Under the pieces are notes generated by a model. It ran no database searches and was not told the DNA's origin. It worked only from the letters and a program-made list of their open reading frames with translations. DNA of 64,000 nucleotides from Podarcis pityusensis (taxonomy: Eukaryota): assembly GCA_964106645.2 (NCBI GenBank), contig OZ067045.1; one strand, written 5' to 3'. The position numbers and the translations under genes were made by a program. Shown here piece after piece: positions 15,236-47,657 of this stretch. The stretch's first letter is position 1. Each line of letters starts with the position of its first letter.

Positions 15236-16439
15236 ATGTTAGCCCTATTTGAAGAAGACCCCTTGAAATGAATGGACATGGTGAACATAGGTCCATTAAT
15301 TTCAATTGGTCTACTCTGAGTAGGGCTTTCTTGAACGAAAGCTGAAGAGAGTAATTTAAGGATTGCTGTGTACATCTCTCTTGCTGTATATACCTCTATT
15401 GCTGTTTATACTTTTGGTCTCTGATACTCTACCCAGAACTGGTGGATCAAATCTTCATAGTGCAAATGAATCAATCTCTGTATTATTGACAGTGTCCTAC
15501 CATTTCTCCATCTGCCATTTGGACTGCCAGTGAAAGGTTTCCCCCCCTTCCCACCCATTTTTTTTTTTAAATGATTCTGATAAAATGACTTATTCTTCCT
15601 AGCCATTGATTTTTTTTCTCCCAGTGCGCAGTGTGGCTGGAGTCACCACCATCGCCACCAATACTAAACCACCCCCCATGCAAAAAAAAAAAAAAAAAAA
15701 AGCAACAACCCAAAATTCAACCCTTGCAGTTGAAAAAAAAAAAAGGAAAGAAAAAGCCAAGGGTATAATTTTCTTCAATCAACTGCAGCTCATGACTGCA
15801 ATTATCCAAAATCTTTCCGAACCTTGCTGTGATATGCGAGGGACAGGTCTTGGAGCCTCAGTGGGTGGCTCCCTTTCATCTGGCTTCTCAAACTGTTCTT
15901 TATTGTATGGTTTCAAATTAGTGCTAGCAGCAATGAGCAAATTTGATAATTCAATCTCAAATTAGTTAATGTAACGGGCCAGGAACCACTAACTAGCGGC
16001 CTTGCCTTGCAGGATGAAAAACGCATCTTTACCATAGTTAGGGAGACAAAAGTTAACCAACCTGTCCTTTCAGGACTCTGCATAGGCGTTCGCATGTGTG
16101 TGTGTGTGTTGTTAAGAAAGGACAGATGAGCCTAGTCCCTTTTCTTGTCACATGTTCAGCCATGAATAGCTTTCCATCCCATTTTCTGCAGAAAATGTGC
16201 AGCATTTAAGTCATTTACGTCTCTCCCCTAACTTGACTTGGCTACTGTACTCCATGCTCTGGTAATTTCCAGATTGGATTATTGCAATGCGCTCCATGTG
16301 GGGCTGCCCTTGAAGGCAACTAGGAAACTTCGATTGGTCCAAAATGCAATGGTCTGATTACTGGGCTGGGTTTCCTTTCTGATCTCACATAAATTAGGCT
16401 GGCATGCCCTCCAACATTTCTCCAATGAAAATAGGGACA

Positions 16440-16476
<37 letters not shown>

Positions 16477-16544
16477 CCCTGCTCATCTGACTGGGCAGCT
16501 TCCAATATATATATGAAAACATAGTAAAACAAATCTTCCCTGTG

Positions 16545-16770
16545 CAGTGGTACCTCGGGTTACATATGCTTCAGGTTACAGACTCCGCTAACCCGGAAGT
16601 AGTACCTCGGGTTAAGAACTTTGCTTCAGGATGAGAACAGAAATTGTGCAGCGGCGGCGTGGCAGCAGCGGGAGGCCCCATTAGCTAAAGTGGTACCTCA
16701 GGTTAAGAACAGTTTCAGGTTAAGAACAGAGCTCCAGAATGAATTAAGTTCTTAACCTGAGGTACCACTG
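16545..16770 (+). mobile_element. pogo/Tigger-type MITE, copy 3
   Basis: CAGTGGTACCTC...GAGGTACCACTG; flanks TG/TA. Confidence 0.92.
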
Positions 16771-16879
16771 TACATGACTGCCTTCACATGCCTTCTAAAG
16801 GTTGCATATTTACTTATCTCTTTGGCTCGGGGGTTGCAATAACTCCATACCCTCCAACATTTCTCCGATGAAAATAGGG

Positions 16880-17134
16880 ACAGATCCTGAAGCTGAGGCT
16901 CCAATACTTTGGCCACCTCATGAGAAGAGAAGACTCCCTGGAAAAAACCTCTGATGTTGGGTAAGATTGAGGGCACAAGGAGAAGGGGATGAAAGAAGAC
17001 AAGATGGTTGGGCAGTGTTCTCGAAGCTACGAACATGAGTTTGACCAAACTGCGGGAGGCAGTGGAAGACAGGCGTGCTCTGGTCCATGGGGTCACGTAG
17101 AGTCGGACACGACTAATCGACTAAACAACAACAA
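16880..17134 (+). mobile_element. BovB (RTE clade) LINE 3' end
   Basis: Encodes QILKLRLQYFGHLMRREDSLEK (frameshifted afterwards); ends GGGGTCACGTAGAGTCGGACACGACT..(CAA)n. Confidence 0.92.
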
Positions 17135-17369
17135 TAAAGGAAAAGTGGGACATTCTGGGATCAAATCAGAAACTGGGATAGTTTTGTAAATCCAGGACTG
17201 GTCCTGGAAAATAGGGACACTTGGAGGGTCTGGCCCAGTTGCCAGTTTGTTTCCAGGCCTAATTGAAGGTGCTTATGTTAAGTACTGAAAGCCCTAAACA
17301 ACTCAGGTCCCAAATATCTGAGAGACCACCTCCTTCTGTGCTGGCCCTCTCAGCTGCCATGATCGGCAG

Positions 17370-17620
17370 AGAAGAAGAGGAGGAGTTTGGATTTGATATC
17401 CTGCTTTATCACTACCCAAAGGAGTCTCAAAGCGGCTAACATTCTCCTTTCCCTTCCTCCCCCACAACAAACACTCTGTGAGGTGAGTGGGGCTGAGAGA
17501 CTTCAAAGAAGTGTGACTAGCCCAAGGTCACCCAGCAGCTGCATGTGGAGGAGCGGAGACGCGAACCCGGTTCACCAGATTACGAGTCCACCGCTCTTAA
17601 CCACTACACCACACTGGCTC
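17370..17620 (-). mobile_element. Young Squam3-type (MIR/Ther1-derived) SINE
   Basis: Head GAGCCAGTGTGGTGTAGTGGTTAAGAG...GGTTCGCGTCT on minus strand; (CTT/CCT)n tail. Confidence 0.85.
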
Positions 17621-18468
17621 CTCAAAGGCTCAGGTGTGGGGGGCAGCCCAGGAGAGGGCCTTCTCTGTGGCTGCCCATAAGCTGTGGAACTCCCTCCCCA
17701 CGGAAATATGCCTGGCATCTTCATTGTGCCTCCTTTAGAGGACAGCTAAATACACATCTCTTTACCCTGCCTTTGACACCTGAGGTATCTATTTTTAGAA
17801 CCCACCTTATTTTTTTATGATCGGCGGTTGTTTGATTACTGCTTTTAATATTTTAATATTTTTTAACTATTGTTGTGTTAATGTTTGTGTACAGGCATGG
17901 TCCTCACAATAAACGGATTTGAGAATTTGAGATTACTGCTTTTAATGTTGCGTTTTAATGTTGCAACCCACTATGGGACCTTGGCAATAAATTGTAATAA
18001 TGAAATAATAACCACACTCCTCAATTTGCCACACTTATTGTCTGGATAGAAACAACATATTGAAAGCATTTGCTTGCACCCAAAGACTCTTCAGCAATGC
18101 AGTCAATTAAGGATACTGGGAACTGTAGCCCAGCGAGGGGTAAGCCGCTGTTTCCAGGATGAAATTCACAGTGTGGACGCAGCCACTGAGCAGAACTGGC
18201 CTCGGTGAATGCTCTAAAGGCTGCGTGGAGAATTTATCTGCATGTGGCACTGACAGCGGCATGGTGCCTGGTGCCAGGGGCTGTATAAGCACACACAACT
18301 CCTTGGTCAGTCCTCTTTAGTTTACCTCACAGTGTAAAACTAGTTGGATTCATTCAGGCCAGCTAGGACCTATATAGTTAACGCACTGCTCACAATTTAA
18401 AGGAGGCGTTTCTGTTTACGCTATACTGTTGCCCCGGGACAAGGTTTGTTAGTCCTTATTTCGTATTA

Positions 18469-18949
18469 CAGTGGTATCTTGGTTCTCAAACGCCTTGGTA
18501 CTCAAACTACTTTGAACCCAAACACTGCAAACCCGGAAGTGTTCAGGTTTGCGAATGCTTTTCGGAAGCCAAACGTGCTCTGCTTTGAGTGTTACGCTTC
18601 CGTTTTGAGTGTTACGCTGAGGTCTGTCTGTTTTTGCTATTTATTTTGCGGTTTTGTTTTTGTGCCTCTTTTTTTTGTTTTTGTGACTGTGTGGAACCCA
18701 GTTCGGCTACTGATTGATTGACTGTGTGACTGCAGTACATTGTTTATTGCTTTCATTTTATGGATCAATGGTCTCTTCAGATAGTAAAGTTTATGTTAAA
18801 TTGCTGCTTTAGGGGTTGTTTTTAAAAGTCTGGCACAGATTAATCCATTTTGCATAACTTTCTATGGGAAAGCGCGCCTTGGTTTTGGAACGCTTTGGTT
18901 TTGGAACGGATTTCAGAACGGATTAAGTTTGAGAACCAAGGTACTACTG
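18469..18949. mobile_element. Tigger-like non-autonomous DNA transposon
   Basis: TIR CAGTGGTATCTTGGTTCTCAAAC / GTTTGAGAACCAAGGTACTACTG; TA flanks. Confidence 0.9.
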
Positions 18950-19599
18950 TATATTTGTGTGCTTGTTTTATTTTATTTTCATTTTTTATTTTTTTAATGT
19001 ATTTTTCTTAAAGATTTCTTGGTTTACAAAAGTATGTGCAGTGTCTCTTTTTTTTCAAGTTAAGTTTTCTACAGCTGACACAAAACACATACACTAAGTA
19101 GAATAGAAGCATTGCCACCCGACCCCACCCCCAATCACTGTGCTTGTTTTTGTTTTTAGGGATGGAAAGTCTATTTCTGTTCCATGTCAACTTCTCATGT
19201 GCCAAATCATCAGTACAACCTATCCAGTCTTCTTTCTTTCTTTTCTTTTTAATACAGAAAAAACCAACATATACTGATATGCATTTCCTCCTAAATTGTG
19301 GCGTGTTTTTTTTGGGGGGGGTATGCAATTTCCCTTAAAACACATCTCAGTACACATTCAACTCCCAAATTGCACATTGCTGAATGTGTTTGCATTTTAC
19401 CCTAAAGTTGGCATTTTTGTATGGATTTCCCCCCTAAATGCACTTTTTGGAAGCAAAACTGTGTTGTAAAATTTAGAGAAATGCACAGTGCAAATGATGA
19501 CTGTGTGCTGATCCATGGATTAGTCTAGGAACTGCAAATTAGGTTAGTTTGCTTAAAAACGCACACCAAATGCATATGGCTATATTTTTGACATTGAAC

Positions 19600-19601
<2 letters not shown>

Positions 19602-19638
<37 letters not shown>
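19602..19638. repeat. (TG)n microsatellite
   Basis: Direct inspection. Confidence 0.95.
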
Positions 19639-19642
<4 letters not shown>

Positions 19643-20218
19643 GTGGAGAAAATTTCCTATTTCCCTCCCCCTGTGCATATGAGTGATTTGGGTTTTTTTT
19701 TTAAAAAAAATGCCCACAACGGCCAGTTGTAATGGCAACAATGGATGCAATCTATCAAATACAGCTTCTCTTTATTTCAATGGAAAGTTGCGTGGGAATA
19801 ACCCTTGATGGAATACGCTGAATACTTTCAAGTCATTGGCAATCCTGCATGAATTTTGGTCAGTGCGGTGCTGTGCCAACCCCAGATAAGATGTGAGATG
19901 AGTAGGAATCAGGAGGCTGACCATTTGCGACGAGACTTGGGTTTGGGTAACAGGTTGTGATGCAGCAGGAAGAGGAGAAATGCAGATTTTGGGTGCTTCA
20001 GCAAAGGATGACAGCAAGGTCACAGAAAAAGAGAAGGTTGCTTTTTCCAGAGTCAGCCCATTAGTCTACCCGGCTCAGTTTTGCTGGTAGAAGCTTTCCT
20101 GGGTTTCAGACCGGAAATTTTCCTAGCCCTACTTAGAGATGCTGGGAATTGAACCAGGGACCTTTTGCCTGCATGCCACATGGCTCTACCTCTGAGATAC
20201 ACTTCATACTTTAAGACT

Positions 20219-20612
20219 TAGGAACCTAGGAAGCTGCCTTTCACTGAGCCAGGCAACTGGCCCATCTTGTTCAGTCCTGTCCATACCAACTGAATGGTGG
20301 CTCTCCAGAATTAGGGAAGGGGCTGTAGCACAGGGGGGAGAGCATCCGCTTTGCATGCAGAAGATACAAAGTTCGATCCCCGGCTTCTCCGGGTAGGACT
20401 GGGAATGTTCCCTGCCTTTGAACCCTGGCCAGCTGCTGCCAGTCAGTGTGGACAATGCTGAGCTAGATGGCCAATGGCTTGACTCAGTATGAGGCCAATG
20501 GTCTGGTCAGAATATCAGACAGGAATCCTTCCTAGCCCCCACTGTAGATGTCGGAGTCTGAGCTTGGATTTTTTATTTTTTTGCAGAAAAGGAATGTGCT
20601 AACCACTGAGCT
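20219..20612 (-). mobile_element. tRNA-headed SINE interrupted by an opposite-strand copy of the same family (~20314-20510, +)
   Basis: Tail half at 20219-20310, head half at ~20515-20612; the inserted copy has a GGTAG-like/GTTCGATCC head. Confidence 0.65.
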
Positions 20613-23222
20613 ATTCTGTCTAATAAGAAAGAGGGGTGTTTTTAATTGAGTGGGGTGGGGCAGAGGGTATAGCACACACCTTCCTTGGTAATATAGAATA
20701 AAGAAAAGAGAAATCCATTTTTTTTCTGCAAGAAAATTATAATCAAGACTTCTGATTTTCCCCACCCCCAACTATAAATATATATATTTTTAAAAGATGC
20801 TTAAATACATTTTGGCCCTTCTGTCCGAGCATCCAATCCCCAACATTAAAAGCCAGAAAACACAGGCACTAGACAATGAATCAGTAAAGAAAGGGCTGGA
20901 GCACAACTAATGCTTGCGAAGCACGGTTCATCCTTTCTTGGGAATGAGAATGCTATCAGTAATATATGAATGCCAGGCGGTTTGCTTCAAATTCTGGGAA
21001 GCTGTGAAGTTGAGATGAAGAGAAGGATTGGAGAGAGGCTTTCAAAAGCGCCAGTGTTGTGTTGAACTCTCTACTTTAATCAGAGCTGAAAGGCCTCCGG
21101 CCTGGAGCCGAGTGACAGATGATTCTCCCCTGAAAATGTTTTCAAATGGAACAGAAAACGCTGTTTATCTGTGTGGTCTGAGCTCATTTACTCCAATAGG
21201 AACCTTCAACTCCTCTCTGACTGAAAGCCAGGTCTTGTTCTCCCATCTGATGGATGAATTGAATCTGGAAGTTTGATCCCGTCCCCTGAGATGTCATTTA
21301 AGTCCACAGATACGTCCGACAAGCAGAGGGACGCGTCAGTCCCTTGGCTCATCTCTCTCTCTCCCTCCCCGCCTGCCCCCACCTCCTTCATTCACTATAA
21401 GATCCTCTCTATTCACTACTCTCCCCTCACCCTTCGCTTTTCTGATTTTCTTTTTTTAAATTAAGTGTCGTATTCTTGCACTGCAGGGCTTATTAGACTT
21501 GTATGCAGCACACATCGTGACACACTAAGATGCTTCTCTTTTTGGAGGGGGGAGAATAAATTAAATGTACAATTTTTGAACTCTGAAATGCTCAGCTTTT
21601 GACTTTTCGGGACATGAAATCTAACTCAATCTGAATAATAAAAAATGAATGAATGAATGAATTCAGCTAAAGTTATTTGCTGGTGTGGATGCGTTGCCCA
21701 GGTCTGGCTGTTCCCTAGCTAGCAGCCACACAGCTCCCAGAAAAACAAATGTACCCACAGGACTCTCCATCCGTGTTGCCTTCATGAATGGGAGCAGACC
21801 CACCCACCCCGAGGGAGTGTGTTTCTGCAATCCTGATGTTCCCACAAGGTGAGAGAGTGCTGCAGGTGAGCTTACCACACCTTGTCTCTAAAAGCTTGGC
21901 AGTGGGGGCATGGAAACTTGTTGGGGCATCTTCGCAACTTCCGTTTGGTTCTGAACTTCTTTTTGAAATCCTGAATCATGACTCCGGAGCTCTGTGGCTG
22001 AGTTGCCCAATGACTGGGGCCCTTAGGGGAACCACAGAGCTTTGGATCCAATGGATTTTTATTTTATTTTTTTCTAAAAAAGCTTATTTGGAGTTTTTCT
22101 CTCTCTAGGCTGCATTTAGCAATAACTTCCTACCTGACTGGGAGCCACTCCGGTCTCTGCTGCAGCAAAGAGAGTGCCACATGCCATCTGATTCCCCAAC
22201 CATTACACAACAACCTTCCTGTACAAGCTACAGCTCTAGACTGTGCCCTTTCCTAATATTACCAAAGGCTAACATTAAACCACTTGTTGTGGGCTTAGGA
22301 CTGCACTGTAGATGGACGCAGGAAGCTACCTTAGGCCAAGTCCGAACTGGTCCATTGAGTTCAGTATTGTCTGCACTAACTGACAGTAGCTCTCCAGGGT
22401 TTCAGGTGGGGCACAATTCTTAGCCTTGGCTGGAGATGCCAGGGTTTGAACCTGGGAATGCAAAGCAGGTCGTGACCCTTCCCCTTTTGGTCTTACCACT
22501 TTTTCCCCTTTGGGTGTCCCAAGCCCTGATTATCTGTAGCCAAGGCTTCTGCTTGGCTGGTATTTAAATCTGCATACTTATCTGACAATCATAGCCTGCA
22601 TGGTATGACTCTTCCTATCCATTTCCCTTAGTTCCGGCTTCTGTTCTCTGTTGCTTCTTGCCCTACTCCTGAACTGCCTCTTTGAAACTTGACTCACTTA
22701 ACCCACAGACATGGGCTCACCAGCAATGGACTGGTAACGGATGCCACCGATCTTGCTCATCTGCCAGCTGGTGGCTCCCTCCTTCCCTCCAACATTTGAC
22801 AGCAGAAAAAGGACACACTTGCCAGTTTCATTGTCAGATAAGTAAAGGATTCACCATACGATAGCGAGGAAGGGAGATGAATAAGAGGCTTCGGTCGAGC
22901 CTTACGGTATTCTTTGCCTGTATTAATTTCTCATAAACGCCAAAGGCACTGATGGCATGTGTGTCCCCTAAAAATATACAGACATTTCAGAGCTCTAAAA
23001 ATTCAGAGCTAAGGATGTGGGAGAAATTGGATTCAGTTCACGTTTACCTAATCTGCATTTCCCGAAACAGTATGCAAACTGAAACACAACACACACAAAC
23101 CCACTTCAGAATGCACACTTCTACAAACTTTTGCAGTCAAGTCCTTCCATCAAATGATGTGAACAAAGATGCATATACTAGGGGAAAGTGTGCATAAATG
23201 CGCAAATTAAAAAATATATAAC

Positions 23223-23672
23223 TGTCAGGTGCTGGTGTGGTTGCTCGAGAGCAAACAGGCAAGACTCTGACCTGTCTTTTTCAGGCTTTATTATTAGTGC
23301 AAACTATTTGCAGTGAAGAGCATCGCAAGTTCATGTCTGGCTCACTTGCTAGCAGAATCTGGGAGTGGACAGTCCTTATACCTCCTCTAGCATAACAGTT
23401 GTGTGACCCCCAACCTTTTCCTCCCTTCCCTGCACCTAAACCTACTGCGCAGCATGGGTGCTGGCAAAGGGGTACTTCCCTCCCCTCCGGTTTGCTCAGG
23501 CTCAGTGTTGAGGCTCTCCCAAGCATCCCCTGCTCCCACCACTTCCTCTCCACTGGAGGTGGGGCTTCCCTCCTCGCCAGAAGAGAAACTGCTTCACAAG
23601 ATTTTCAGAGGTTCCCTATAACACAACTGCCCTTCCACCTCTCACCTCTGAGCTGATGACAGTTCCCTGACA
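23223..23672 (-). mobile_element. Solo LTR (450 bp)
   Basis: TGTCAGG...CCTGACA inverted termini, perfect 5-bp TSD ATAAC, AATAAA on minus strand (~23287). Confidence 0.9.
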
Positions 23673-23728
23673 ATAACATTAAAAAATGCATTTTATTAAG
23701 GGGACCAGCTTGCAAAAAATATGCCTAC

Positions 23729-24233: not shown

Positions 24234-24236
24234 ATA

Positions 24237-27039: not shown

Positions 27040-27074
<35 letters not shown>

Positions 27075-29096: not shown

Positions 29097-29285
29097 CTGG
29101 GGGTGCCAACTTGAATGAAATATTGGGGGGCAGGTAAGTCCCATCCTACATAATTGATCACAAGTCGTGGTGCAGGCACACTGTTTGAATGGCAATGCCC
29201 ACCAAATTTCGGGGGACTTGGCTACGTCAAATATTTTATTGGGGGAGGGGCAAAAGCACCTCATCCCCAAGGAGTTGGCTTTATG
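29097..29285 (+). mobile_element. hAT MITE (CAGGGGTGCCAAC...GTTGGCTCCTATG family), copy 1
   Basis: Homologous to 34428-34616, 36255-36452 and 37775-37965; TSD eroded. Confidence 0.75.
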
Positions 29286-29347
29286 TGCAATAAAACTGAC
29301 TGAGACTGAGACATTCCCCATAAACTCAGCCATTTACACAGACAAGC

Positions 29348-29698
29348 CAGACATGCACTCCGGTTTCTGATTCGATCCTGAAATGTCCCACTTTTCCTTA
29401 GGGCATCCATATTTTCATCAGAGAAATATTGGAGGCTGTGGTAGGACGTCCCTATTTTCATCAGAGAAATGTTGGAGGGTATGGAGTTATGTGACCCCCC
29501 CCCCCCAAGCCAAGGAGATAAGTAACTATGCAATCTTTAGAAGACATCTGAAGGCAGCCCTATATAGGGAAGTTTTAAAAAATGTTTAATGTTTCATTAT
29601 GTTTTTATGTATGTTGGAAGCCGCCCAGAGTGGCTGGGGCAACTCAGTCAATAATGGAATAGGACGACCCTATTTTCATTGGAGAAATGTTGGAAGGT
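29348..29698 (+). mobile_element. Composite CA...TG MITE with L2 cargo, copy B (internally deleted)
   Basis: CAGAC start, three copies of the right terminus, cargo peptide KEISNYAIFRRHLKAALY; flanks ACAAGC/ACAAGT. Confidence 0.8.
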
Positions 29699-31174
29699 AC
29701 AAGTTCCTGAGCCATAATATAAATATACTGGTCCTTTCCCTTTGGTCTTCTGCCATTTCCTCCTCCTCCTTCAATGAAAGGGTCACAGTTCAGTTCCTTA
29801 CACTCAGAAGCCCCCAGGTTCCATCCCTGATGTCTCCAAGTAGGTCTGGGTAAGATTCTGGCCCAAGACCAGTTGGAGCTACTGCCAGTCAGTGTAGGCA
29901 ATAATGAGCTAGATGGGCCAATTGAAGCATCCCATGTTCCCATGAACATCTTTCCCTGTCTTAGACCTCAGTTTCTTAACTTCATCAGCCACTGCATCCG
30001 CAAGCCAAACTGGAGACTGAGTCCACCAGATCTTAACACATCAGAGCAATGCCAGCCTGCTCCACCGCTGGACTGCCATTTCGCTTAATATATTACTGGC
30101 TGCCTTTACCCACAAAAGTGCCCCTGGCCGATTCTGTGAGTGGGTGGATCAAAGAATGGTGGTTAAAGCAGACATTTAAAAATAAGGCAAGATGGGCAGA
30201 GCTCCTCAATTAAATTCTGCAAAGGCAAACACAAAAGTTCGGAGGCATCTTATCAGCTGAGACCCTCCCATTGTCCCACAGCCAATAGAACCCGTAAGAT
30301 TTAGTGCACACTTATTACCCTGCGATCAGCACTTTGTGGCTTGGCAACCCGAAACCTTTTATTTATGGAAGAATAATGAAATTATATTTTAACCGCCTCA
30401 CATCAAAGTTCAGTGCTTCCGATAAGTTTCCACTACAGCTTCGCCCCAGGGCAATGCAATCCCTTTTATTAATACTTTGTCCTGGTTCATAGATGGATGA
30501 ATCACTACATGGATATCAATACAACCTTTAGCCACAGACTATTATCAAAATCAGCATCCATGGCGATTTTAGAAGGTTTCATTACACCTCCGTGGGCAAG
30601 CACACTGCAGAGATGCAAATCTTTCAGGCACTGATTACAATAATTTTGTAGCTGAGAGCCCAGAATACCACAGTCCCAATTTATTATATTTTATTTTAAC
30701 TGCCATCCTAACATGGAGGACAGAAACTTTGTTGGAAAATATCCACATTTACTATCACAATTTTTTTGGGGGGGATCTATTATTTTCAATAAGGCTCATT
30801 TAAATTAATAGACCAAATGTCACTGACTTCAGTGAGTAGGATTAGCATTCAGTGCTACACCTTTATCATATATGACAAACCTGTATGCAAAACTGTGCAT
30901 GCAATGAGAAATGTGCGTGAAAATGCTGGCAAGTTTTCATTAGGTCTTTTAAAAAAAGAATAGCGAACTGATGCAGAAATGGGGCAAACACGTGAAGAGG
31001 AGAAACAAAAAGTGTCAGATTTGTCCATCCTTAATGCAGACAGGCAGGCAGGCACACACCACATGTTCCAATCTTGTCTGTTCCCATGTCCACTTAGGTT
31101 CTCTAAGGACATCAGAGGAACCCAGCTAGACTTGAACCAAAGGTCCATCTATTCCATTTCCTAAGCCATATTCT

Positions 31175-31661: not shown

Positions 31662-32004
31662 ACAGTCTTCAGCTTGAGGCATCTGGGAAGCCCAGCATGA
31701 AGGCAGCAGTGCAGCCCCCTTGTTTGTCCCAAAATTATTCAGACGGGAAATGGACAGGTCCATCCATCCCCACCTGGGATGGAGAACCTGATGCCTGTCA
31801 GATGGACTTTGTGTGCAACTCCCATCATTCATGACCATTGGCCATGGCTCATGGGAGTTGCAGTCCAACAACATCATGAGGGCACCAGTTTGGGAAGGCT
31901 GAACAAGCAGACCCTCCAAGTGTCCCTATTTTCCAGGGACACCCCAAATTTACAGAAGCCGTCCCAGTTTTTGATTTGATCCTAGAAGGTCCCACTTTTC
32001 CTTA

Positions 32005-32237
32005 AAGGTAAAGGTAAAGGGACCCCTGACCATTAGGTCCAGTCTTGACCAACTCTGGGGTTGCGACGCTCATCTCGCTCTATAGGCCGAGGGAGCCGGC
32101 GTACAGCTTCTGGGTCATGTGGCCAGCATGACTAAGCTGCTTCTGGCGAACCAGAGCAGCGCACAGAAACGCCGTTTACCTTCCCGCTGGGACGGTACCT
32201 ATTTATCTACTTGCACTTTGACGTGCTTTCAAACTGC
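32005..32237 (-). mobile_element. Sauria SINE, 5'-truncated
   Basis: Matches the tail-side ~230 bp of 10206-10561; TSD CTTTTCCTTA. Confidence 0.93.
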
Positions 32238-32357
32238 TTTTCCTTAGGATGTCCCTATTTTCATTGGAGAAATGTTGGAGGGTATGGAGTTATGTGACCC
32301 CCAGAGCCAAGGAGACAAGTAACTATACAACCGTTAGAAGATACCTGAAGGCAGCCC

Positions 32358-32505
32358 TATAATAATAATGATAAATAATAAAATTTTATTTATATCCCGC
32401 CCTCCCCAGCCGAAGTCGGGCTCAGAGCGGCTAAGAACAATAAAATGATACAACATTCTAAAATCATTTCATTATAAAATCAATTCAAATCAGATTAATA
32501 AAACT
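32358..32505 (-). mobile_element. LINE (L2-like) 3' tail of another subfamily
   Basis: TTTATTTATATCCCGCCCTCCCCAGCC...GGGCTCAGAGCGGCT with AAT-rich tail; absent from the other composite copies. Confidence 0.6.
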
Positions 32506-32686
32506 ATATAGTTTTATTACGTTTTTATATGTGTTGGAAGCCGCCCAGAGTATGATGATGATGATGATCATTATTATGGAATAGGATGTCCCTATTTTCA
32601 TGGGAGAAATATTGGAAGGTATGAGCAAGGAGATCTACTGAAGACTGCCACCACCCTCAACTTCATAGGCCTAAGCCATGTTTATA

Positions 32687-33999: not shown

Positions 34000-34384
34000 C
34001 ATATCCTCCAACATTTCTCTAATGAAAATCGGGGTGTCTTCTTCTTCTTCTTCTTCTTCTTCTTCTTCTTCTTCTTCTTCTTCTTCTTCTTCTTCTTCTT
34101 CTTCTTCTTCTCCTGCCCACTCTGGGCAGCTTACAACTCATATAAAAACATAAAAAAATTAAACATAAAAAACGGCCTTCAGGTGTCTTCTTAAGGTTGC
34201 GTAGTTATTTATCTCCTTGGCTCGGGGGGGGGGGGTTGCATAACTCGATACCTTCCAAAATTTATCCTATCAAAATAGGGATGTCCTAAGGAAAAATGGG
34301 ACATTCCAAGATCAAATAAAAAAACAGGATGGCTTCTGGAAATCCAGGACTGTCCCTTGAAAATAGGGACACTTGGAGGGTCTG
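34000..34384 (-). mobile_element. Composite CA...TG MITE with L2 cargo, copy D
   Basis: CATATCCTCCAAC...TTGGAGGGTCTG; 6-bp flanks CATGGC/CATGGG; (TTC)n at 34037-34111. Confidence 0.88.
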
Positions 34385-34427
34385 CATGGGCAGCAGTCTG
34401 TCCACCAGAACCTCTGACAGGGCACAA

Positions 34428-34616
34428 CATAGAAGCCAACTCCTAGGGGGTGAGGGGTCTTTGCCCCCCCCCATAAAATATTTCAGGGGGCCGAGTCCGC
34501 CCCCCAAGTTGATTGGCATTGCCATTCAAATGGTGTGCATGCACTGTGTCATGTGACTATGTGGGGCAGGGCATACCTGCCCCCTCTCCAATATTTAATT
34601 CAAGTTGGCCCTCCTG
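34428..34616 (-). mobile_element. hAT MITE (CAGGGGTGCCAAC family), copy 2
   Basis: 8-bp TSD GGGCACAA/GGGCACAC. Confidence 0.85.
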
Positions 34617-35809: not shown

Positions 35810-35857
<48 letters not shown>

Positions 35858-36146
35858 TCATTTATTATTTATACCCCGCCCATCTGTCTGGGTTTCCCCA
35901 GCCACTCTGGGCAGCTTCCAGCAAAATATTAAAATACAATAATTAATCAAATATTAAAAGCTTCCCCAAACAGTGCTGCCTTCAGATGTCTTCTAAAAGT
36001 CCGATAGTTGTTTTTCTCTTTGACATCTGATGGGAGGGCGTTCCACAGGGTGGGCACCACTACTGAGAAGGCCCTCTGCCTGTTTCCCTGTAACTTCACT
36101 TCTCGCAATGAAGGAACCGCCATAAGGCCCTTGGCGCTGGACCTCA
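35810..36146 (-). mobile_element. Young L2-clade LINE 3' end
   Basis: Open ORF2 C-terminus RQRAFSVVVPTLWNALPSDVKEKNNYRTFRRHLKAALF, 3' UTR and (ATT)n tail. Confidence 0.9.
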
Positions 36147-36254: not shown

Positions 36255-36452
36255 CATAGCAACCCACCCCTAGGGGACAAGGGAGTCTCTCCCCCCCCCC
36301 CAATAAAATATTTGAAGGGGCCAGGGGGCTCCAAAGTTGATGGGAACTGCCATTCAAATGGGGTGTGGGTGTGTGCCGTGTCATGTGATCCATTATATGG
36401 GGCAGGGTTTATCTGCTCCCCCCCAAATATTTTATTCAAGATGGCACCCCTG
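36255..36452 (-). mobile_element. hAT MITE (CAGGGGTGCCAAC family), copy 3, inside a CR1-type tail
   Basis: TSD ATCCCATG/ATTCCAAG (6/8). Confidence 0.8.
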
Positions 36453-37351
36453 ATTCCAAGGGTCAGCTAGTCCAATTCTCTGCAAAGCAGAGATCCCTGA
36501 CAGATGGCCATCCAACTTGGTAAAAATAACACACCAAAGGGAAATTGCTTTGCAAGAAGAAGTGGTGTATATTAGGAGGAACATAACACTAAAATGCTGA
36601 TGAATTTTCATTCTTGGGGAGGGAGGAGAAAAAGGGAAACCAATGTGGAAACATGGAGAACGGACCTGAAGAATGGAAGAAGGAAAAAATGAGAGAAACC
36701 TACACTGACAGGTTCACCATTAGCCTTACTCAGAGTAGACTCTCTGAAATCAAGAGATGCAGGCAACTTATGACCACTAATGTTGATGGATCTACTCTGA
36801 ATAGTACGTGGTTGGCTTCATCCTGAAGATACACACCTCTTGTGTAGCCTTGAGAGCGATCTGTCTGGAAGCAAAGGACACCTGGAACTTCAAACAGTGT
36901 TCAAACCCCTGTCAGACTGGAATGTAATTAGAGCAAGTTCAACAGCATCCTGAAGCAGCGGAGGTCAGAGAGCAAGAGAGAGAGAGAGATCTGGCAGAAG
37001 GACTGAGCTGGGTCATTACTATGAGAGTGGGGGGTAGGACATGTACGACAAACCTTTAAGTCCCTTAATGACCGTGAACATTTCAGTTTGGGTTCCTCGT
37101 TGGGGACAATCCGCCCTCAACTGCAATAGAAACCACCTCAAACTTAGAACCTCTAGCTTTGATGCTTTGATAGAAGCCAGCTTTGTGCGATGCTCGATTT
37201 AGAGAGCGGCAGCCAGTGCTAGCCCTACTCAGAATAGATCCATTGAAGTTAATGGGGGTGGCTAACAAAGGTCCCCTAATTTCAATGGGTCTAATTTGAG
37301 TTGAAGTTAGTTGGATACAAAGAATATTTCTGCAAGCAATTTCACCTAATA

Positions 37352-37593
37352 CAGTGGTGCCTCAGGTTACATACGCTTCAGGTTACATACGCTTCAGGTT
37401 ACAGACTCCGCTAACCCAGAAATAGTGCCTCAGGTTAAGAACTTTGCTTCAGGATGAGAACAGAAATCGTGCTCCGGCGGCGCGACAGCAGCAGGAGGCC
37501 CCATTAGCTAAAGTGATGCTTCAGGTTAAGAACAGTTTCAGGTTAAGTACGGACCTCCGGAACGAATTAAGTACTTAACCTAAGGTACCACTG
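37352..37593 (+). mobile_element. pogo/Tigger-type MITE, copy 4
   Basis: TA-CAGTGGTGCCT...AGGTACCACTG-TA. Confidence 0.93.
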
Positions 37594-37697
37594 TATACAC
37601 TTTTTTAAAAAATGTACATCTTCCTATTATATATGGATTTTTGCATTGGATTGTGGGGAAGGGGTAAAAACAGGGCAAGTGAATGTTTGGTGAGGGT

Positions 37698-37698
<1 letters not shown>

Positions 37699-37743: not shown

Positions 37744-37749
<6 letters not shown>

Positions 37750-37774
37750 CAAGTGACAACAATGGAGTTGTGAC

Positions 37775-37965
37775 CAAGGGTGCCAACGCAAGTAAAATGT
37801 TGGTGGGGGGCAGGTAAGCCTTGCCTCACATCATCCATCACAAGACACAACACACACACACACCATTTGAATGGCAATGCCTATTAACTTTCGGGGGCCC
37901 GGCCCCCACAAATACTTTATTGGGGAGGGGTGAGGGCACCTCAGCCTTAGGTGTTGGCTCCTACG
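37775..37965 (+). mobile_element. hAT MITE (CAGGGGTGCCAAC family), copy 4
   Basis: 8-bp TSD GTTGTGAC/GTTGCGAC. Confidence 0.87.
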
Positions 37966-38577: not shown

Positions 38578-38593
38578 ATGAATAGCATACTGA

Positions 38594-38656
38594 ATTATTA
38601 TTATTATTATTGAATAGGACATTCCTATTTTCATCAGAGAAATGTTGGAGGGTATG
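38594..38656 (+). mobile_element. Isolated right terminus of the composite CA...TG MITE
   Basis: (ATT)n-GAATAGGACATTCCTATTTTCATCAGAGAAATGTTGGAGGGTATG. Confidence 0.8.
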
Positions 38657-40016
38657 AAACAGGATGCTGGACTAGGTCCTGATCCAGGAGGGCTCTTCTT
38701 ACTTGCAAGTGGTGAATCAAAGCATCAGTACACATGGAAATAGTGTAGGTAGCAGATTAATATGCCAGATCTACATCCAAGACTGCTGACTCAGTTATTT
38801 TAAAACTCCAGTAATTGACTTTGTTGGGGGTTTTTTGTTTTTGTTTCTTAAAATGGCATTAGCATTTAAATGGTAACAGCATTATAAAGGTGAAGGTTCA
38901 GCAGAATATGATCAATGTATTGAAATTTGCAAATGTTCCCTTTGAGTGTGTGTGCGTGCCTGCGATAGGCACACCGAGACAGCTTTTCACGCTGCTGGGA
39001 TTTTATTTGGTGTTATGTCAGGAAAAAAGTGTATAGCATCAAGTAGCACTCTTGAGTCGGCAGCTGCTAGGTGGAGACAAGTAAGAATTTTACCCTTCAA
39101 TTTCTCACCCTCCTTCCAAAGCTTCATTTCCTTCAAAGCTAGTCCCGTGATTATAAAAAAAAAACCACCCAGAGCTGATCTATTTGCAAAAATGTGGGGA
39201 GGTTTATCCCCCATTGATCCACTGCCATGAGAATTATTAGTATGCAATTATACAAGCATATTCGTATACACTTACTAGTATGCAATTGTGGTTTTTTCAA
39301 CAGAGCATTGGACATATTTGACACAAGAATGCAGTTGCATTGGTTATTATTATATTTTATGTCCTGCTTAAATGATGTCAAATTGGCTTCTGAGCCATGT
39401 ACAAGTATAAAAACCAATGGCATAAACATCCAAATATAAAGACCCATGATAAAAATGCACAATAAAGCAATTGCCTGAGAACATTAACATATAAACATGC
39501 ATTATTAGGATATGCAAAAAAAAAAGCAAAAAAAAAAGCAGCAATCCCATCAAAAGGAAGCAGCAGAAGACTAGGACCTGAGTTTTCCACAATTCATGGT
39601 CTTGACCAGATGGACTAATCTCAACACCCTTTGGGGTTTATGGACAGCATCACATGAGAAGAAGCGTGGTGCAGTGGTCGGAGTGTGGACTAAGGCTGCG
39701 GAGACCCGAGTTCAAAGCCCTGTGAAGTTCACTGAACAAAGAATGCCTCAATATGTATCTGTTTTTTCCCCTCGGGGAAATGGGCAAGAATCAACCCTTT
39801 CAATACAACAAAATCGTCTCACTGAGCAAAAGCTCCAGCCAGGAATGGTGGATCGGAATTAAGCAGCAGAACTAAAACCCCATCCCTTGTGCCTCCTGCA
39901 ATGGAAGGCTTAAAACTGGTGGTTATGTCCAACATTTTTCCACGGGACCATCTCCAGGCTGGTGCAGAACAGGGGTTAGGATCCTGGCTCTCCATGGGAC
40001 ATGGTCCAGCTTTGGA

Positions 40017-40637
40017 TAGGGTTGCCATATTTCAAGATGTAAAATTCTTGACATCCACAAAGTTGTTGTTGAGGGGTTTTTTTTGGGGGGGGTTAAGGAA
40101 ACCACCCAAATTGTTGATAAAATAGTGGTTTTAAGCTTTTGGAGCTGTTTCCGCTGTTTTCTTCCATCACGTTGCCATACATCTGGGTTTTCCCTGACAT
40201 TTTTTTTTTTTTTTACGATACGATAATCTTTATTGTCATTGTCCCATACAGAACAACGAAACTGAAAAAATCTACACCAGACATTCAAAAACCAACAAGC
40301 CTGCTATCCCAGCTATCCCAGCCTGGGTAACCCCCTAAAAACTCTGATACCCCATAATTAAATACAATATACTACCATAGAGACTACCTTACACTGCATT
40401 TAAAACCAAAATTGCATTTGGATAGAAATTGTTTCTCAGGCGGCTAGTCCTAGTCTTTATAACCCTGTACCTTCTCCCAGAAGGCAGAAGCTGAAAGAGA
40501 TCATTTCTGGGGTGCGCACTATCCTGCACTATCTCTGCAGCTTTCATATGACAAAATCCACACACACACACCCCATGCCATTTTTGCACCAGAAAAACAG
40601 GACATGTCAGGAATTTTCCTGATGTATGGCAAGCCTA
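40017..40637. mobile_element. hAT (Blackjack-like) non-autonomous element with a Rex1 insertion
   Basis: TIR TAGGGTTGCCATA / TATGGCAAGCCTA; 8-bp TSD GCTTTGGA/GCTTGGGA. Confidence 0.87.
40215..40545 (-). mobile_element. Rex1/Babar LINE 3' end
   Basis: Peptide IVQDSAHPRNDLFQLLPSGRRYRVIKTRTSRLRNNFYPNAILVLN* (Rex1 C-terminal signature); 3' end ATGACAATAAAG + (TATCG)n. Confidence 0.88.
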
Positions 40638-40742
40638 GCTTGGGATCCAGCAGATTTGTGCTGGACCTGCTCTCCCTCCCCAGTGCTCCTCTGAGAGCTG
40701 CCAATGGAGATAGCACACACTCTCCTGTACTTTCAGTGATTG

Positions 40743-40977
40743 TAGGGTTGCCATATCTTGAAGAGCAGAAAAAGAGGACAGCCTGAGCCACTGCCAGCCT
40801 GAGCCCGGGAAAGAAGGGCACAGGTATGCGGGGCCACTGGCTTGGACTGGCAGCAGCTGCGGTGTGCAGAGCTGCCTGTGCCCCTTGCCCCCTCCCAAAC
40901 CCTAGACATTTCCTTTAAAATGTGGAAACCCCCCCTGGATTGGCATTTTGGCCCCCCAAAAGAGGACATATGGCAAC
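40743..40977. mobile_element. Second Blackjack-like hAT MITE
   Basis: TAGGGTTGCCATAT...ATATGGCAAC; AGAGGACA subterminal motifs; no TSD found. Confidence 0.65.
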
Positions 40978-42959
40978 AGGAGCCCTGCATAAGAGGAGCC
41001 TGGCCCATGCGTGGAGAGACGCTTCCAGCTCATCCTCGCCCCTTCCAGCAGTGTGGGACAGTGGTTAGGGTTGCTCTGCTCAGTCCTGGGAATTACATAC
41101 TAGATCAATAATTGCAAGAGTTATGGTTCTATGCACAATTTTTCTGAAAAGGGAGATTTTTTTAAAAAGCAAGTTTGGCCCAATGGAGAAGCAAAATTAA
41201 ATAGGTACATTGCGTATGTTTGTGTGGCTGATAATTTTGCAAAGATACGAATTTCTTCATTTGGTAAGGCTAGAATTTCACTAAAGAAAACGAAACAGGA
41301 GGCACGCTCCTTATTCCAGAATGTCACACATGCATTCAAATGCTTAAAAAAAAATTAAATGCTTAGTTTGAAATATAATTTAGGTCACATTTTTTTAAAA
41401 AATGATTTTTTTAAAAAATGCATAATTTTAAGGGAAAGCAAGACAGGGAACATATTAAAATATTTATTCCCAACAATCATGAAGTGCCTCATCTTGCAAA
41501 GCAAATCAGAAATGGTGTTTCTTGACTGGATAATCCAGAGTTAGGCATTTAGTTTGCAATCCTCCAAATGCTTACCTGGCAGTAAGTCTCACTGAATTCA
41601 ATGGGACTTACCTCTGGGTAGATATGGCTAGGTTTCCACCAAGGTAAAGTTTCATTTGGAGTTTTAAATTTTAAAAGGCTTATGTCTCATAAATCGCTGG
41701 ATGAGACTGTGCTCTGCCCACTACGTCCCTGCCCGGCTTTCAAATGTGGGGCCAATTCCGTTTAAAGAAAAGTCCCAACAATATGTCACAACCCAAATGT
41801 CTAAGTCTTTTGTTTTGTTTTTAAAGCCACTCCTAATCTGGTTTGGAGCATTCATCTTTTGTCACTTGGGAGTTAAGAGAGATCCACACGGCCTGTAAAC
41901 AAGGCAAACGACGTTCTGCCTTAACCACAAAATTAGAACCCATCTCAACTTTCTTTAAAAAAATAATAATAATAAAGTAACAACAACCTCTGGACTGTTT
42001 CCTGAATCGGAGAAGCTCTTAATATCGCAAAGAATCCATCTCAAACTTCTGAAACATTTGTCGCTACCAGAAGTGCCAGCAATTTTTTATGAGCCTGATG
42101 TTTTCTCGTCTTTACTGCAGCCTCCTCTGCCAGGAAATCTTTCCAGCTTCGGCTCATGTTAGCAGAGGCCCAGGGACCGTGCCAAAAATTAACTCAAAGT
42201 GTATCCTCCCCTCTGTTCAAGGAAGGTTCATTAGCGGCCAATTACACTATACAAGGGACTTGCTATCATATAAAGCTATGTCAACGATCCAAGCCGGCAG
42301 ATTTTGTGAAGGCTTTTCTCGGCATTTCCCCAGGAAGGGGGAGACACGCCCGCAAGAGGAACACTCAGTAGCACTTAATAAACTTGGTCATCTGAGCAAA
42401 ATGTAGCCAAAATATAGTGTGCATGCACTCACACACCCTTGCGAATTGCGTGCCCTTGAAAAAGTTTGCAGCTGGGAAAAGGGGCATGCGCATAACAGCC
42501 TTATATTCTCATACCAGGGATCACTGCCCACGCTCAGCCTATCCTAGGATTTTATTTATTCTGCAACAGCCAGTTATTCTGCAACAGCCAGTCCTCAGGC
42601 CTATATACTAGTAGGGAACACATTCTCTGGATTCCGATCTGTGCATAGTTAAAACAGCATCATCCGCACACGAGTGGGAAGATCCTGGCATACTTGTGGG
42701 ACACACAATACATTTTCAGACGTATGGAATTTCTTTGGGAGGGGGAAATCCTAAAGGAAGGGGAGGACGAAACAGCTCAATTATTGCTGAGCATGTTTGG
42801 TGAAGTCAGAATGCTGAATGGTTGTTGCAGGGAGGGGGCAATGGAACACTGGGGAGGGGAAATGGAATGGAGTATTCTGGAAATGTGCATGGCTGGCTGA
42901 AAACTTGATGCCAGGCTGCAATGTTGCACAAGATCATGTTTCATTTTATTTTCCTTTTG

Positions 42960-43044
42960 GAGATAGATAGATAGATAGATGATAGATAGATAGACAGACA
43001 GACAGATAGTCTTAGATCCTCATAAAATGAAATATAATAATAAC

Positions 43045-43083
<39 letters not shown>
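42960..43083. repeat. (GATA/GACA)n and (AAT)n microsatellites
   Basis: Direct inspection. Confidence 0.92.
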
Positions 43084-43084
43084 T

Positions 43085-43450
43085 TGTCATTTTACTCAAA
43101 AGAATAACTGAAAGCAATTTACAAATACAACGGAAATGTCAAAATCAATTACAATAAATGTAATCAGTAAAACACTTACAAGCACAAATGCGTACAAACA
43201 AAAGGCAAGTCTACTGTTCCATCAGAAGAGGTCACGAATATTTGAAACCCTTTGAATTAAGGGCCAAAAACCTGTGTGAAAACAAAAGTTTTTGCCTGGT
43301 GCCCCAAATGAGACAAAGGTGGTGCCAGGCAAGCCTCCCTGGGGCCGGGCATTGCACAAGCTGGGAGCCACCACCGAAAAGGCCTGTTCCCATGTTACCA
43401 GGCCTCCAGTAGAGGGAGGGCACACATAGAAGGGCCAGGTCAGTTCATAT
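43085..43450 (-). mobile_element. Degraded L2-clade LINE 3' fragment
   Basis: Peptide EQAFSVVAPSLCNA on minus strand. Confidence 0.7.
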
Positions 43451-45724
43451 GGAAGGGAAGTTCATGGAAGGAAAGCTTCCTGTTCCCCTCCTCTCTGAAC
43501 CAGCCCCCATTGTTCAGGAGAGACCTTCAACTGTTCAAAGAGGCATTTTGGGGTGTGGAGGGTACAGATGGTCCCAGAGGATGTGAAACTTTCATTGGCT
43601 TCCTTATCTTATCCCAAGGATCTAAGGCGTTATCACTCACGCATCCAACAATGATTTAAATAAATGAAGGATTGCATCCAACATTAGTCTGACGCTGAAA
43701 TTAATGGACGTGATTGAGGTCCATTAATTTAAATGGGTCTGCTTCAAGCAGAACTTAGTTTGATACAATCCAGGGACTTCTTGGCTGAACAGGGATAACA
43801 GAACTGCATGGGGTTATTTAAAGCTTTCATTTCCCCTTCCTTTTACATTTTTCAAAGAACAGAACAGAAATAGCTTGGGTGTGGAAGGGAAGACACTGAA
43901 AATGAGAAATCATCAATATGCATATTCCTTTAGCTACTGTACAGCCTTTTGTCCAAATTGTGCACAAAACTATGTCAGCAGTGTTGAATATCAGAATGAC
44001 TGGAATGCATATTTTACAGCTTATTATCATTTTTTAAAAAATGCTATGTTCTTTTATCTAGTTTCCACTGTATTTTCTCGATGGGTACATTTTCTGGTTC
44101 TTTTAAACCGTCTTTATTAACTTTCCCAGAAGAATCTTATATATTTCTGCTGCTTAATGCTCACTAGCCAGCCAGAAATCACAAGTGTTTGACTTTCTTT
44201 TCTTTTTTTGAGAGATTCAGCAAATATTTGGCATCTTTCAAGTATCGTTTTTCAACAGAGGAGCACGGGGGAGGCAGAACCATCATCTCAACCACACAGA
44301 TTTAATCCAGAAGGCCATCTCTATTAGAGGCTGCAGAACCAACTTTCAACAACAGAGGGCACCTTTATACAGTCGTTATGTTGCATTTCAAATGACTATA
44401 CTTAAAAGATACATGATAATCAAAACACGTTCTGGACCATCAACGAAACCCTTTTTAAAAATCCTGTTTTTAAAACTCGCTCTCTGATTATAATATGAAT
44501 ATGCTATATGTTCTACTGTTAGGAAGATTTTTTAGAGTTGATTTTTTAAAGAAAAGTTGGCTTAAAATAAAAACCTGGCGATGAAGAATTAAACACTGAT
44601 TTTAAGGGCAGGGGAAAGATATTTACATGCATATTCAATTCTGGATAACTTACTTTCCTTTTTCTTGATCTTACAAAGAAAACGCCATCTTTAAATCAAA
44701 CATGCAGAATAAAGGGCATAAAATATCCTACCCAAATACCAGCCCTAATTGGTGCACCTTCCTGGAACAAATCTGTGTCTGCACTTGCGATTCTAAAGCA
44801 ACAACTATTGTGACTTTCCAATACTGCCACATCTGGCTGTTCAGGACTCCCCAAGTCAGGATTTGATGGATACCATTCTCACTGAAAGTTTGTTCACTGT
44901 TTTCTCGGCCTTTCCCCTTGATACCTCGAAATTATGATGATATGGAAAATCATTATTTTTTAAACAGAGGGCATTTGAATGCAACGCCTCATCTAACCAT
45001 GACTATGTAGTTCAAGCCAATCTAATTTCCTTTACAGCTCCTGCATTCGCTTTCCTTGGCTGGAGAATTGCATCGCAGAATTCGGAAGATTGCAATTTTC
45101 AAAGAGCCGCTGTGTTTCAGTTTGCGTAGTGTTTTGCCTCACACAAATCACACAGATTTGGAAGATTTGCCCTAAAATATAAAGTGAATCAATTCTCTCC
45201 CCATCCCTAATTAAGATGCATGTGCATACACACGTGTGTGAGCCCGCACACAAACACACAACTCCTCCATCCCTCATACTACATGCATGTTAGCCCTTCT
45301 CACCCACCAGCTAAGCCCAACTGCCTCATTGAATCATGTCCTGTGTAATTCTTTTTGTCGCGTTTGTATGTGGACTACCAACATGGCTTATTCTGAAGAA
45401 TGGGTTTCCTGAAAACCCAGAATGAACCAATGGTGGTCTTCCGGTATGCTGCTCTACAAAACCTTCAGCCCCCATGACTGTTTGCATTGGATTGGATGGG
45501 ACAATGTACACACACGGAGGGCTTTTCTAAAGAGAAGTGTTCAGAATAACCTTCATTCATGAGGAGTTTGTACAGGTGTGAAAATGACAGTCATTCCATC
45601 ACATCAAATGCCCGGACAAGTTCTATTTGAGAAGAGCGGAGACTTTCCCCCTTTCCTTGTCAGCTTGAACACAGAAACCATTTGAAAGAGAAAAATGAGG
45701 GGTGGGTGGGATTCCTAAACTATA

Positions 45725-45955
45725 CAGTGGTACCTCAGGTTAAAAGCTTAATTCATTGCAGAGGTCCGTTCTTAACCAGAAACTGTTCTTAACCTGAAGC
45801 ACCACTTTAGCTAATGGGGCCTCCTGCCGCTGCCACACAATTTCTGTTCTTATCCTGAATCAAAGTTCTTAACCTGAGGTACTATTTCTGGGTTAGCGGA
45901 GTCTGTAACCTGAAGCGTCTGTAACCTGAAGCATATGTAACCCGAGTTACCCCTC
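45725..45955 (-). mobile_element. pogo/Tigger-type MITE, copy 5 (opposite orientation)
   Basis: Reverse complement of 6114-6355; TA flanks; right TIR degraded. Confidence 0.9.
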
Positions 45956-46965
45956 TAGTTCTTGTGCGATAGGGGACTAATAATTGCTGAAAAAAAATGA
46001 AAAATAAACCCCATGGATCATATCTAAACTCACTTTGAAATGCTGTTCTGTAGATGTAAATGAAAAGCAGGCCTGTAGACAGTCCTACAGCTGGTTTCAT
46101 GGAAGTAACTCAATGGACATACTTCTGAGTAGACAAACCTAAGATTGCCCTGTTCAGCTCAGTGCTCCTCCAAATTATAGAAAGTTCTCTTCCCATGCAA
46201 AAGAGGCTCCTCCTCTTCTGTCTAATTCACAATACAAATTTAAAATATATCGATGGTTTTAGTGGGTGTGTGGTTGAACCTTCCTACTTGCTGTGAGCTG
46301 GCTGAAGGTGACATGCCACTAAACTTTTTTTTCCAGCACTCTGCATCCTCCCTACACTTCCCGATCTGAAAGGGGCCAACTGGAGAAGCTGCCTCCCCAA
46401 ACCAACTCTGCCGTAGCCTGGAGCTGACTGTGTGCAGTGCAGCTAACATGGGACAAAGTGGGATTGCAATAGTGGGCAGCCAGCGGATGCCCCATCAACC
46501 TTGGTGCCTGCCTAGGAAAGCAAGCCTAGAAAGGGAGACTAAAGTTCTGTCAGCAGGTTCTAGGAACCTCATAATCTCTTTGTTGTAAGATTTCAGGGAT
46601 GGTATGTGAGTTTGTTTGGGTCTTTGGAAGAGTCAGGAGGCTGAGAGATGTCAAGTGGAAGAAGGAATATATGTCAGCATTTATTTCTTAGTAATTTGCA
46701 TTCCGGGTATTATTGTGTTTGTTTGTAATATTTGTTGTGGTGGTGGTTTATATGTATAGAAATGGTCTAAATATATAAACAAGATTAATAATTTCCCTGG
46801 TTTTTAACTGAGGAATGGGAAGCCAGGGAGTCTGGTTTAACCAGTGCCTGAGATTGGCCTTTTATCTTAAAATAAAGTTGTTGGGTTTTTGTTTTTGTTT
46901 AAAAAAGGCTTAACAAATAAACAATAAGCCGTTGTCAAGAGTATGACACTTGGTGAGACCAATGA

Positions 46966-47657
46966 CAGACCCTATTTTCCAGGGATGTTCCTGATTTAGA
47001 GAAACCATCCCACTTTCTGATTTGATCCTGGAAGGTCCCGCTTTTCTTTAGGATGTTCCCATTTTCATTGTTGGAGGGTATGGAGTTATTCACCCCCTGA
47101 GCCACCTGAAGGCAATCCTGTATAGGGAAGTTTTTTAAAAATGTCTAATGTTTTATTACGTTTTCATATATGTTGAAGGCTGCCCAGATTGTCTGGGGAA
47201 ACCCAAGAATATGTGGGGGGTATGAATAGCAAAATTATCATTATGGAATAAAGGTAAAGGTAAAGGGACCCCTGACCCTTAGGTCCAGTCGTGACCGACT
47301 CTGGGGTTGCGTCGCTCATCTCGCTTTATTGGCCGAGGGAGCCAGCGTACAGCTTCCGGGTCATGTGGCCAGCATGACTAAGCCACTTCTTGCAAACCAG
47401 AGCAGCGCACGGAAACGCCGTTTACCTTCCTGCCAGAGCAGTACCTATTTATCTACTTGCACTTTGACGTGCTTTCAAACTGCTAGGTTGGCAGGAGCAG
47501 GGACCAAGCAATGGGAGCTCACCCTGTTGTGGGGATTCGAACCGCCGACCTTGTGATTGGCAAGTCCTAGGCTCTGTGTTTAACCAACAGTGCCACCCAC
47601 GTCCCCATTATGGAATGGGACGTCTCTATTTTCATCACAGAAATGTTGGAGGGTATG
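46966..47657 (+). mobile_element. Composite CA...TG MITE with L2 cargo, copy E (nested Sauria SINE)
   Basis: CAGACCCT...TTGGAGGGTATG; perfect 6-bp TSD CAATGA. Confidence 0.9.
47250..47605 (-). mobile_element. Sauria SINE, full length
   Basis: Highly similar to 10206-10561; TSD CATTATGGAAT. Confidence 0.95.

Follow-up and report, generated by a model that had tools for sequence, protein, structure and literature searches.

A short non-autonomous DNA transposon family of a lizard genome carrying the 3' end of an L2-type retrotransposon between tandem right ends

Transposable element (TE) cargo inside non-autonomous hAT transposons of lizards has been in print since 2010 (PMC3014272). Fragments of Penelope, short interspersed nuclear element (SINE), CR1 and Chapaev sequences are described within the hobo-N1 to N15_AC families of Anolis carolinensis, and in its part on the autonomous hobo the same paper ascribes the cargo of that element to captured genomic DNA (PMC3014272). 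Pack-TIRs and Pack-MULEs also hold foreign DNA between their terminal repeats, which is amplified by transposition with new target duplications (PMC8277862). The present analysis concerns a family of short transposons, five copies of which lie in a 64,000-nucleotide stretch of Podarcis pityusensis contig OZ067045.1 (the whole stretch being referred to below as the window; G000:C8:68324001-68388000 of a 1.515-Gb genome, with positions of features given in window coordinates). The family carries the 3' end of an L2-type long interspersed nuclear element (LINE) between two tandem right ends. TE-cargo transposon families are known from lizards, and the L2-carrying family is a further example; its closest precedent is the nested TE cargo of the Anolis hobo-N families. 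As in those families, non-autonomous DNA transposons of a lizard share their ends and enclose fragments of other TEs, partial deletion of the cargo has given rise to subfamilies, sequences are shuffled between families, and the copy number of the carried TE is raised (PMC3014272). However, the hobo-N elements, as far as they are described in that source, have 8-bp duplications, other termini, lengths of 1.3-3.4 kb, a divergence of about 1% and tens to hundreds of copies (PMC3014272), whereas the family studied here has 6-bp duplications, lengths of 344-386 bp, a divergence of about 7-11%, about 10,000 copies and a cargo located between tandem right ends with the signature of an L2 insertion. 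Unlike the cargo of Pack-TIRs in the account of PMC8277862, that of the present family is the end of a LINE rather than a host locus that has a parental copy, and multicopy Pack-TIRs have few copies where this family has thousands (PMC8277862). The designation "Pack-type", given to the window copies in a sequence-only reading, is therefore apt for captured sequence between terminal inverted repeat (TIR) ends that is moved by transposition, but loose for a cargo that is another mobile element with no host parental locus. A literature search yielded no description of the L2-carrying family, which is probably uncatalogued in the literature searched, although it could be contained in repeat libraries that supplement papers on lacertid genomes; the treatment of SINE-derived tandem repeats in PMC10702118 has no bearing on it.

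The 33-bp left end had 795 exact matches in the genome, the junction between the first right end and the spacer preceding the cargo had 1,394, and the junction between the spacer and the long L2 piece had 378, with 0 matches for the reversed control in each case. The family is thus real, the match counts being far beyond chance. The density sample of 600 kb, composed of sixty evenly spaced 10-kb stretches of C1-C15 (at round positions, not formally random), contained eight family copies, four of them with certain L2 cargo, which extrapolates to about 20,000 family copies in the genome (Poisson 95% interval about 9,000-40,000) and about 10,000 composites (about 3,000-26,000). The majority composite forms were 386 bp (long L2) and 344 bp (short L2, characterized by a 34-bp deletion and diagnostic changes) in size. 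The L2 5' breakpoint was common to the copies, with one spacer and two discrete cargo lengths linked by the 34-bp deletion; since the spacer is identical in the long and short forms, the cargo is of single origin. The TIR was 12 bp in length with one mismatch and was perfect in older relatives. With its TIRs, fixed-length duplication, short non-coding sequence and many dispersed copies, the family is a non-autonomous TIR DNA transposon resembling a MITE (miniature inverted-repeat transposable element).

The mode of movement was assessed in 70 copies picked by the left end alone (the first 30 loci listed and 40 further C1 positions), of which 58 had L2 cargo, 10 had none and 2 had no right end. 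Of 47 composites with two right ends, 28 had a 6-bp duplication with at most one mismatch at the outer end (perfect in 11) and only 1 had it at the inner, first right end, the frequency in shuffled pairs being 1.1%; duplication lengths of 3-5 and 7-10 bp occurred only at background level in the 47 composites. The position of the duplication at the outer and not the inner end indicates that the whole unit moved as a DNA transposon, in agreement with what had been read from the window. Among the 70, one clear example with a single right end, L111, measured 138 bp and had a perfect 6-bp duplication. The most unusual feature of the family is a variable tandem right end combined with near-constant use of the outermost terminus. 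A second sample comprised 66 unique copies picked by the internal junction (70 loci, four duplicates dropped). It should be noted that three loci, L348, L349 and L350 (G000:C1:22.86-23.00 Mb), all lying within 140 kb, contain one and the same truncated copy together with its flank and represent a segmental duplication. Two further copies (L363:1490-1741 and L376:1362-1540) lack everything before the spacer and retain the second right end, a structure that excision of the inner unit would produce; no matching 6-bp duplication was seen in their flanks.

Tandem-ended elements without cargo also exist. The L2-free tandem right-end junction had 94 exact genome matches, 16 of them within one array, and 62 empty-junction loci were examined after one second match in the same element, six further array matches and one near-duplicate locus had been dropped. 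None of the 62 contained L2, and the 6-bp duplication was present in 23 of the 44 two-ended ones; L2-free tandem-ended elements have thus transposed. Their right-end units were 45, 43 and 35 bp in size and were repeated 2 to 8 times; in addition, L144 (G000:C3:104048675-104051698) contains about 27 tandem 45-bp right-end units between a perfect 6-bp duplication and represents a transposon-end minisatellite. The version of the empty junction expected from the short subfamily occurred once in the genome, so that clean loss of L2 is not recurrent. A second cargo, a hAT-type MITE of about 135 bp with an 8-bp duplication, was found at a constant position within the second right end in 15 of the 62 empty-form loci (L122, L123, L128, L129, L133, L136, L137, L142, L143, L254, L258, L259, L268, L280 and L287; a loose motif flagged 25 loci, of which 10 were not confirmed). 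The same MITE is also present inside a free L2 (L294). A relative of about 850 bp (375 candidates) has the left 96 bp in common with the family and a single right end containing the full 45-bp unit, with a 6-bp duplication in 8 of 17 two-ended copies. The same termini and 6-bp duplications recur in at least three related non-autonomous families, which measure about 250, 630 and 850 bp (L076:6676-8134, L206:2651-2885, L221-L250 and L412-L471); the 250- and 630-bp relatives are older than the composite family, and at L076 a composite copy is nested in a copy of the 630-bp type.

The cargo is 5'-truncated, holds the complete L2 3' untranslated region (UTR) and tail, and stops exactly at the L2 tail. 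It represents the 3' end of a multicopy LINE subfamily, and no unique parental locus was identified. The free L2 of the window at 35810-36146, the translation of which is KEKNNYRTFRRHLKAALF, had been regarded as the family of the cargo, but with 130 of 157 positions identical it belongs to a sister subfamily and is not the donor. A free older L2 subfamily (135 exact genome matches) was identical to the cargo at 148 of 156 positions, its copies being slightly more diverged than the cargo (12.3% vs. 10.5%). Judged by these identities, the putative donor is this older subfamily and not the window L2. The C-terminus translated from longer cargo relatives is, we assume, of the L2 type, and the clade label is used in this sense; a Pfam search of these relatives gave no family over the cut-off. 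The 18-nt spacer was also considered as degraded L2 sequence, and its alignment to L2 was no better than chance (p = 0.6).

According to these data, the family is a non-autonomous cut-and-paste transposon that moved as one unit with a 6-bp duplication, probably of the hAT6 type, and its L2 piece probably stems from one ordinary L2 insertion into a master element with two tandem right ends. The composite corresponds to the empty tandem form with an insertion at its junction, read as flanked by a short duplication, which measures between 3 and 6 bp according to how much of it is attributed to the L2 tail. In 49 of 50 composites, the first right end was followed by the same two bases as in the empty form. 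The second right end was preceded by G in 30 of 37 composites, again in agreement with the empty form, and by A in 16 of 22 ends of the parent, the 850-bp relative. Insertions of the L2 clade have 3-5 bp duplications, with extra 5' bases in about half of the ZfL2-2 copies in the data given by PMC4245944; 5' truncation, a short duplication (3-5 bp in ZfL2s) and extra bases at the 5' junction are common to the present cargo and to ZfL2-1 and ZfL2-2 (PMC4245944). Unlike ordinary L2-clade insertions, one insertion would here have become fixed in a transposon master and then been multiplied by DNA transposition. The proposed series would begin with a parent like the 850-bp relative, with the same left 96 bp and a single right end, in which an internal deletion and a duplication of the last 45 bp may have produced the 183-bp empty form; this form and longer arrays exist and have transposed. 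A 5'-truncated L2 of the slightly older subfamily would then have been inserted where the two right ends join, with duplication of 3-6 bp and addition of 18 extra 5' bases, and the 386-bp product was amplified, a 34-bp deletion giving the 344-bp subfamily. A transposase acting in trans presumably cut at the outermost right end, so that anything between the right-end repeats would be carried along, and the L2 tail would be passive cargo.

Several observations weigh against this scheme. In the junction sample, the ends of which were placed automatically, the 6-bp duplication was found in only 19 of 47 copies. With 94 exact matches against 1,394, the empty forms are some 15 times scarcer than the composites, and they could stem from one early deletion in a composite master via the same short repeat. 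An extra 43-bp unit (127 exact matches) precedes long-L2, short-L2, MITE-cargo and bare ends alike; modules have consequently been shuffled or duplicated repeatedly, which weakens parsimony and blurs the order of the forms. Age cannot order them either, since non-CpG divergence does not differ among them (7.0% for long-L2, 6.7% for short-L2, 7.1% for empty and 6.9% for MITE-cargo forms; p 0.63-0.94). A convincing source of the 18 extra 5' bases was not found among the loci compared, and a transposase with the ends of the family was not found in the 50 examined of 80 PF05699 matches.

The assignment to hAT6 is somewhat favored by the length of the duplication and the form of the ends. hAT6 comprises hAT elements with a 6-bp target duplication, and IS3EU elements also have 6 bp, with TIRs of over 30 bp ending in TAYGG..CCRTA (PMC12730594). 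The 6-bp target duplication and the short TIR are shared with hAT6, in a comparison with PMC12730594 that extends to these two features, and the short TIR fits hAT6 better than IS3EU. Two other assignments were rejected: a canonical hAT, as an 8-bp duplication was present in 0 of 47 composites, and IS3EU, for which the duplication fits but the termini and the TIR length do not. The search for an autonomous partner started from 287 PF05699 candidates, of which 150 were scored, with flanks of 1.5-4 kb; in these loci and among the longer relatives, only the non-coding relatives of about 250, 630 and 850 bp were found. With no partner transposase found, hAT6 is likely but unproven. A young hAT family was encountered at L204-L209, L211 and L213 (e.g., G000:C13:30950102-30953332), three of its copies, nearly identical to one another, containing an open frame of 841 residues; its ends are sharp and shared, and its termini are unlike those of the L2-carrying family.

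It is unlikely that a 138-bp single-ended MITE lying beside an L2 3' end and a stray right end moved all of these as a compound unit by bypass of its own end, the empty tandem form having appeared later by deletion. The single-ended copy L111 with its perfect duplication, the roughly 15-fold excess of composites, the inseparability of the forms by age and the three parent bases that the second right end retains and the first lacks, so that the former could derive from a separate parent-type copy, are all consistent with such a history. However, chance matches would be required at both junctions (an estimated 1 in 64 or so for three bases), the base before the second right end is unlike that of the parent, the spacer matches neither parent nor L2 sequence, and the empty form also gave rise to the second cargo family and to arrays with as many as about 27 units. 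The existence of transposed tandem-ended empty forms with duplications of their own and of junction bases fitting an L2 insertion disfavors adoption of an end, and the proposal made from the window, that a MITE of about 130 bp adopted a downstream duplicate terminus, is thus probably wrong. It is still less probable that, when a broken tandem-ended element was repaired, template switching copied the L2 piece into it from genomic DNA, without retrotransposition (gap filling, or FoSTeST as proposed for Pack-TIRs). Such capture is described in PMC8277862 and PMC3014272, related families contain filler of genomic look, and the shuffling of modules in the family implies frequent template switching; nevertheless, the 5' truncation, the exact end of the cargo at the L2 tail, the short duplication and the extra 5' bases are all typical of an L2 insertion, and fresh L2 insertions were observed in single family copies (L118, L120). 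Spread of the composite at least partly in the manner of a SINE, via the L2 reverse transcriptase, is highly improbable: the complete 3' UTR and tail, which L2-clade enzymes are considered to require (PMC4245944), are present, and in about 6 of the 66 junction-sample copies the element breaks off in the tail and no second right end follows over 1.3-2 kb, but the left end was kept in 60 of 66 and the second right end in 52 of 66, further copies are interrupted at scattered points on either side, and only 1 of 66 (L345), which has no ATT run, is both 5'-truncated and tail-ended, so that the mobilization by this enzyme suggested earlier receives no support.

It may be speculated, with far more doubt than confidence, that the transposase ignores inner termini that are intact and makes its cut at whichever of the tandem right ends, numbering 1 to about 27, lies outermost. 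The gap between the repeats would then be a cargo bay filled twice independently, by the L2 tail and by the hAT MITE, and the roughly 15-fold greater amplification of the L2-filled form over the empty one would be due to spaced double ends serving better as a substrate. If so, cutting at the outermost end would be a general route by which MITEs with tandem terminal repeats capture and spread other elements. The family is also a natural series, amply sampled, in which terminal repeats vary in number and spacing, and its 6-bp duplication is of a length seldom reported. The 600-kb sample contained about 29 free L2 3' ends (matches of at least 50 bp, counted by hand) against the 4 composites, which bears out the expectation that L2 counts are inflated; about 1 in 8 of the 3' ends of this L2 lineage in the sample owed its spread to DNA transposition. 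Unless the family receives its own library entry, squamate annotation is biased in its counts and age profiles of L2.

All five window copies have, at the places first reported, a left end, a first right end, the spacer, an L2 3' end and a second right end, as the sequence-only reading had described; however, the parts are not uniform (Table 1). Terminal ORF2 codons, attributed to all five, are seen in the cargo of c2 (29512-29592), which translates as expected (KEISNYAIFRRHLKAALY), whereas in c5 the KEISNY codons are missing with the 34 bp deleted from the L2 piece. The target duplications ascribed to the outer ends are 6 bp long and recognizable in c3, c4 and c5, but match at only 3/6 in c1 and are not assignable in c2.

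Table 1. Copies of the L2-carrying transposon family and related sequences in the window.
Feature	Position	Strand	Characteristics
Copy c1	16403..17232	-	Long-L2 subfamily; first right end terminates at 16846; L2 piece from 16824; later insertions at ~16883-17136 and 16545-16770
Copy c2	29348..29700	+	Long-L2 subfamily; additional 43-bp right-end unit (extra tandem right end), giving three right ends at 29440, 29483 and ~29700; left end partly deleted
Copy c3	31908..32623	+	Long-L2 subfamily; first right end terminates at 32286; 6-bp duplication 5/6; later SINE insertion at 32003-32238 and a second insertion at ~32360-32495
Copy c4	34000..34384	-	Long-L2 subfamily; first right end terminates at 34247; AAG run in place of tail; 6-bp duplication 5/6
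Copy c5	46966..47657	+	Short-L2 subfamily (34-bp deletion); first right end terminates at 47082; 6-bp duplication 6/6; later SINE insertion at 47249-47605
Sixth fragment (remnant)	38594..38656	+	Only L2-type ATT tail and second right end
Free 5'-truncated L2-type LINE	35810..36146	-	Relative of the cargo, outside the element

Two other repeats were noted in the window. One, about 190 bp long and similar in its terminal word, is present in four copies (29100-29290, 34427-34616, 36255-36452 and 37769-37963); two of these are situated upstream of c2 and c4, at a distance of 40-60 bp and with matching orientation, and the DNA in between differs. A MITE of about 250 bp, presumably Tc1/Mariner-like, is present in five copies with 85-94% identity (6112-6360, 14722-14970, 16545-16775, 37350-37601 and 45721-45957), one of which is inserted in c1.

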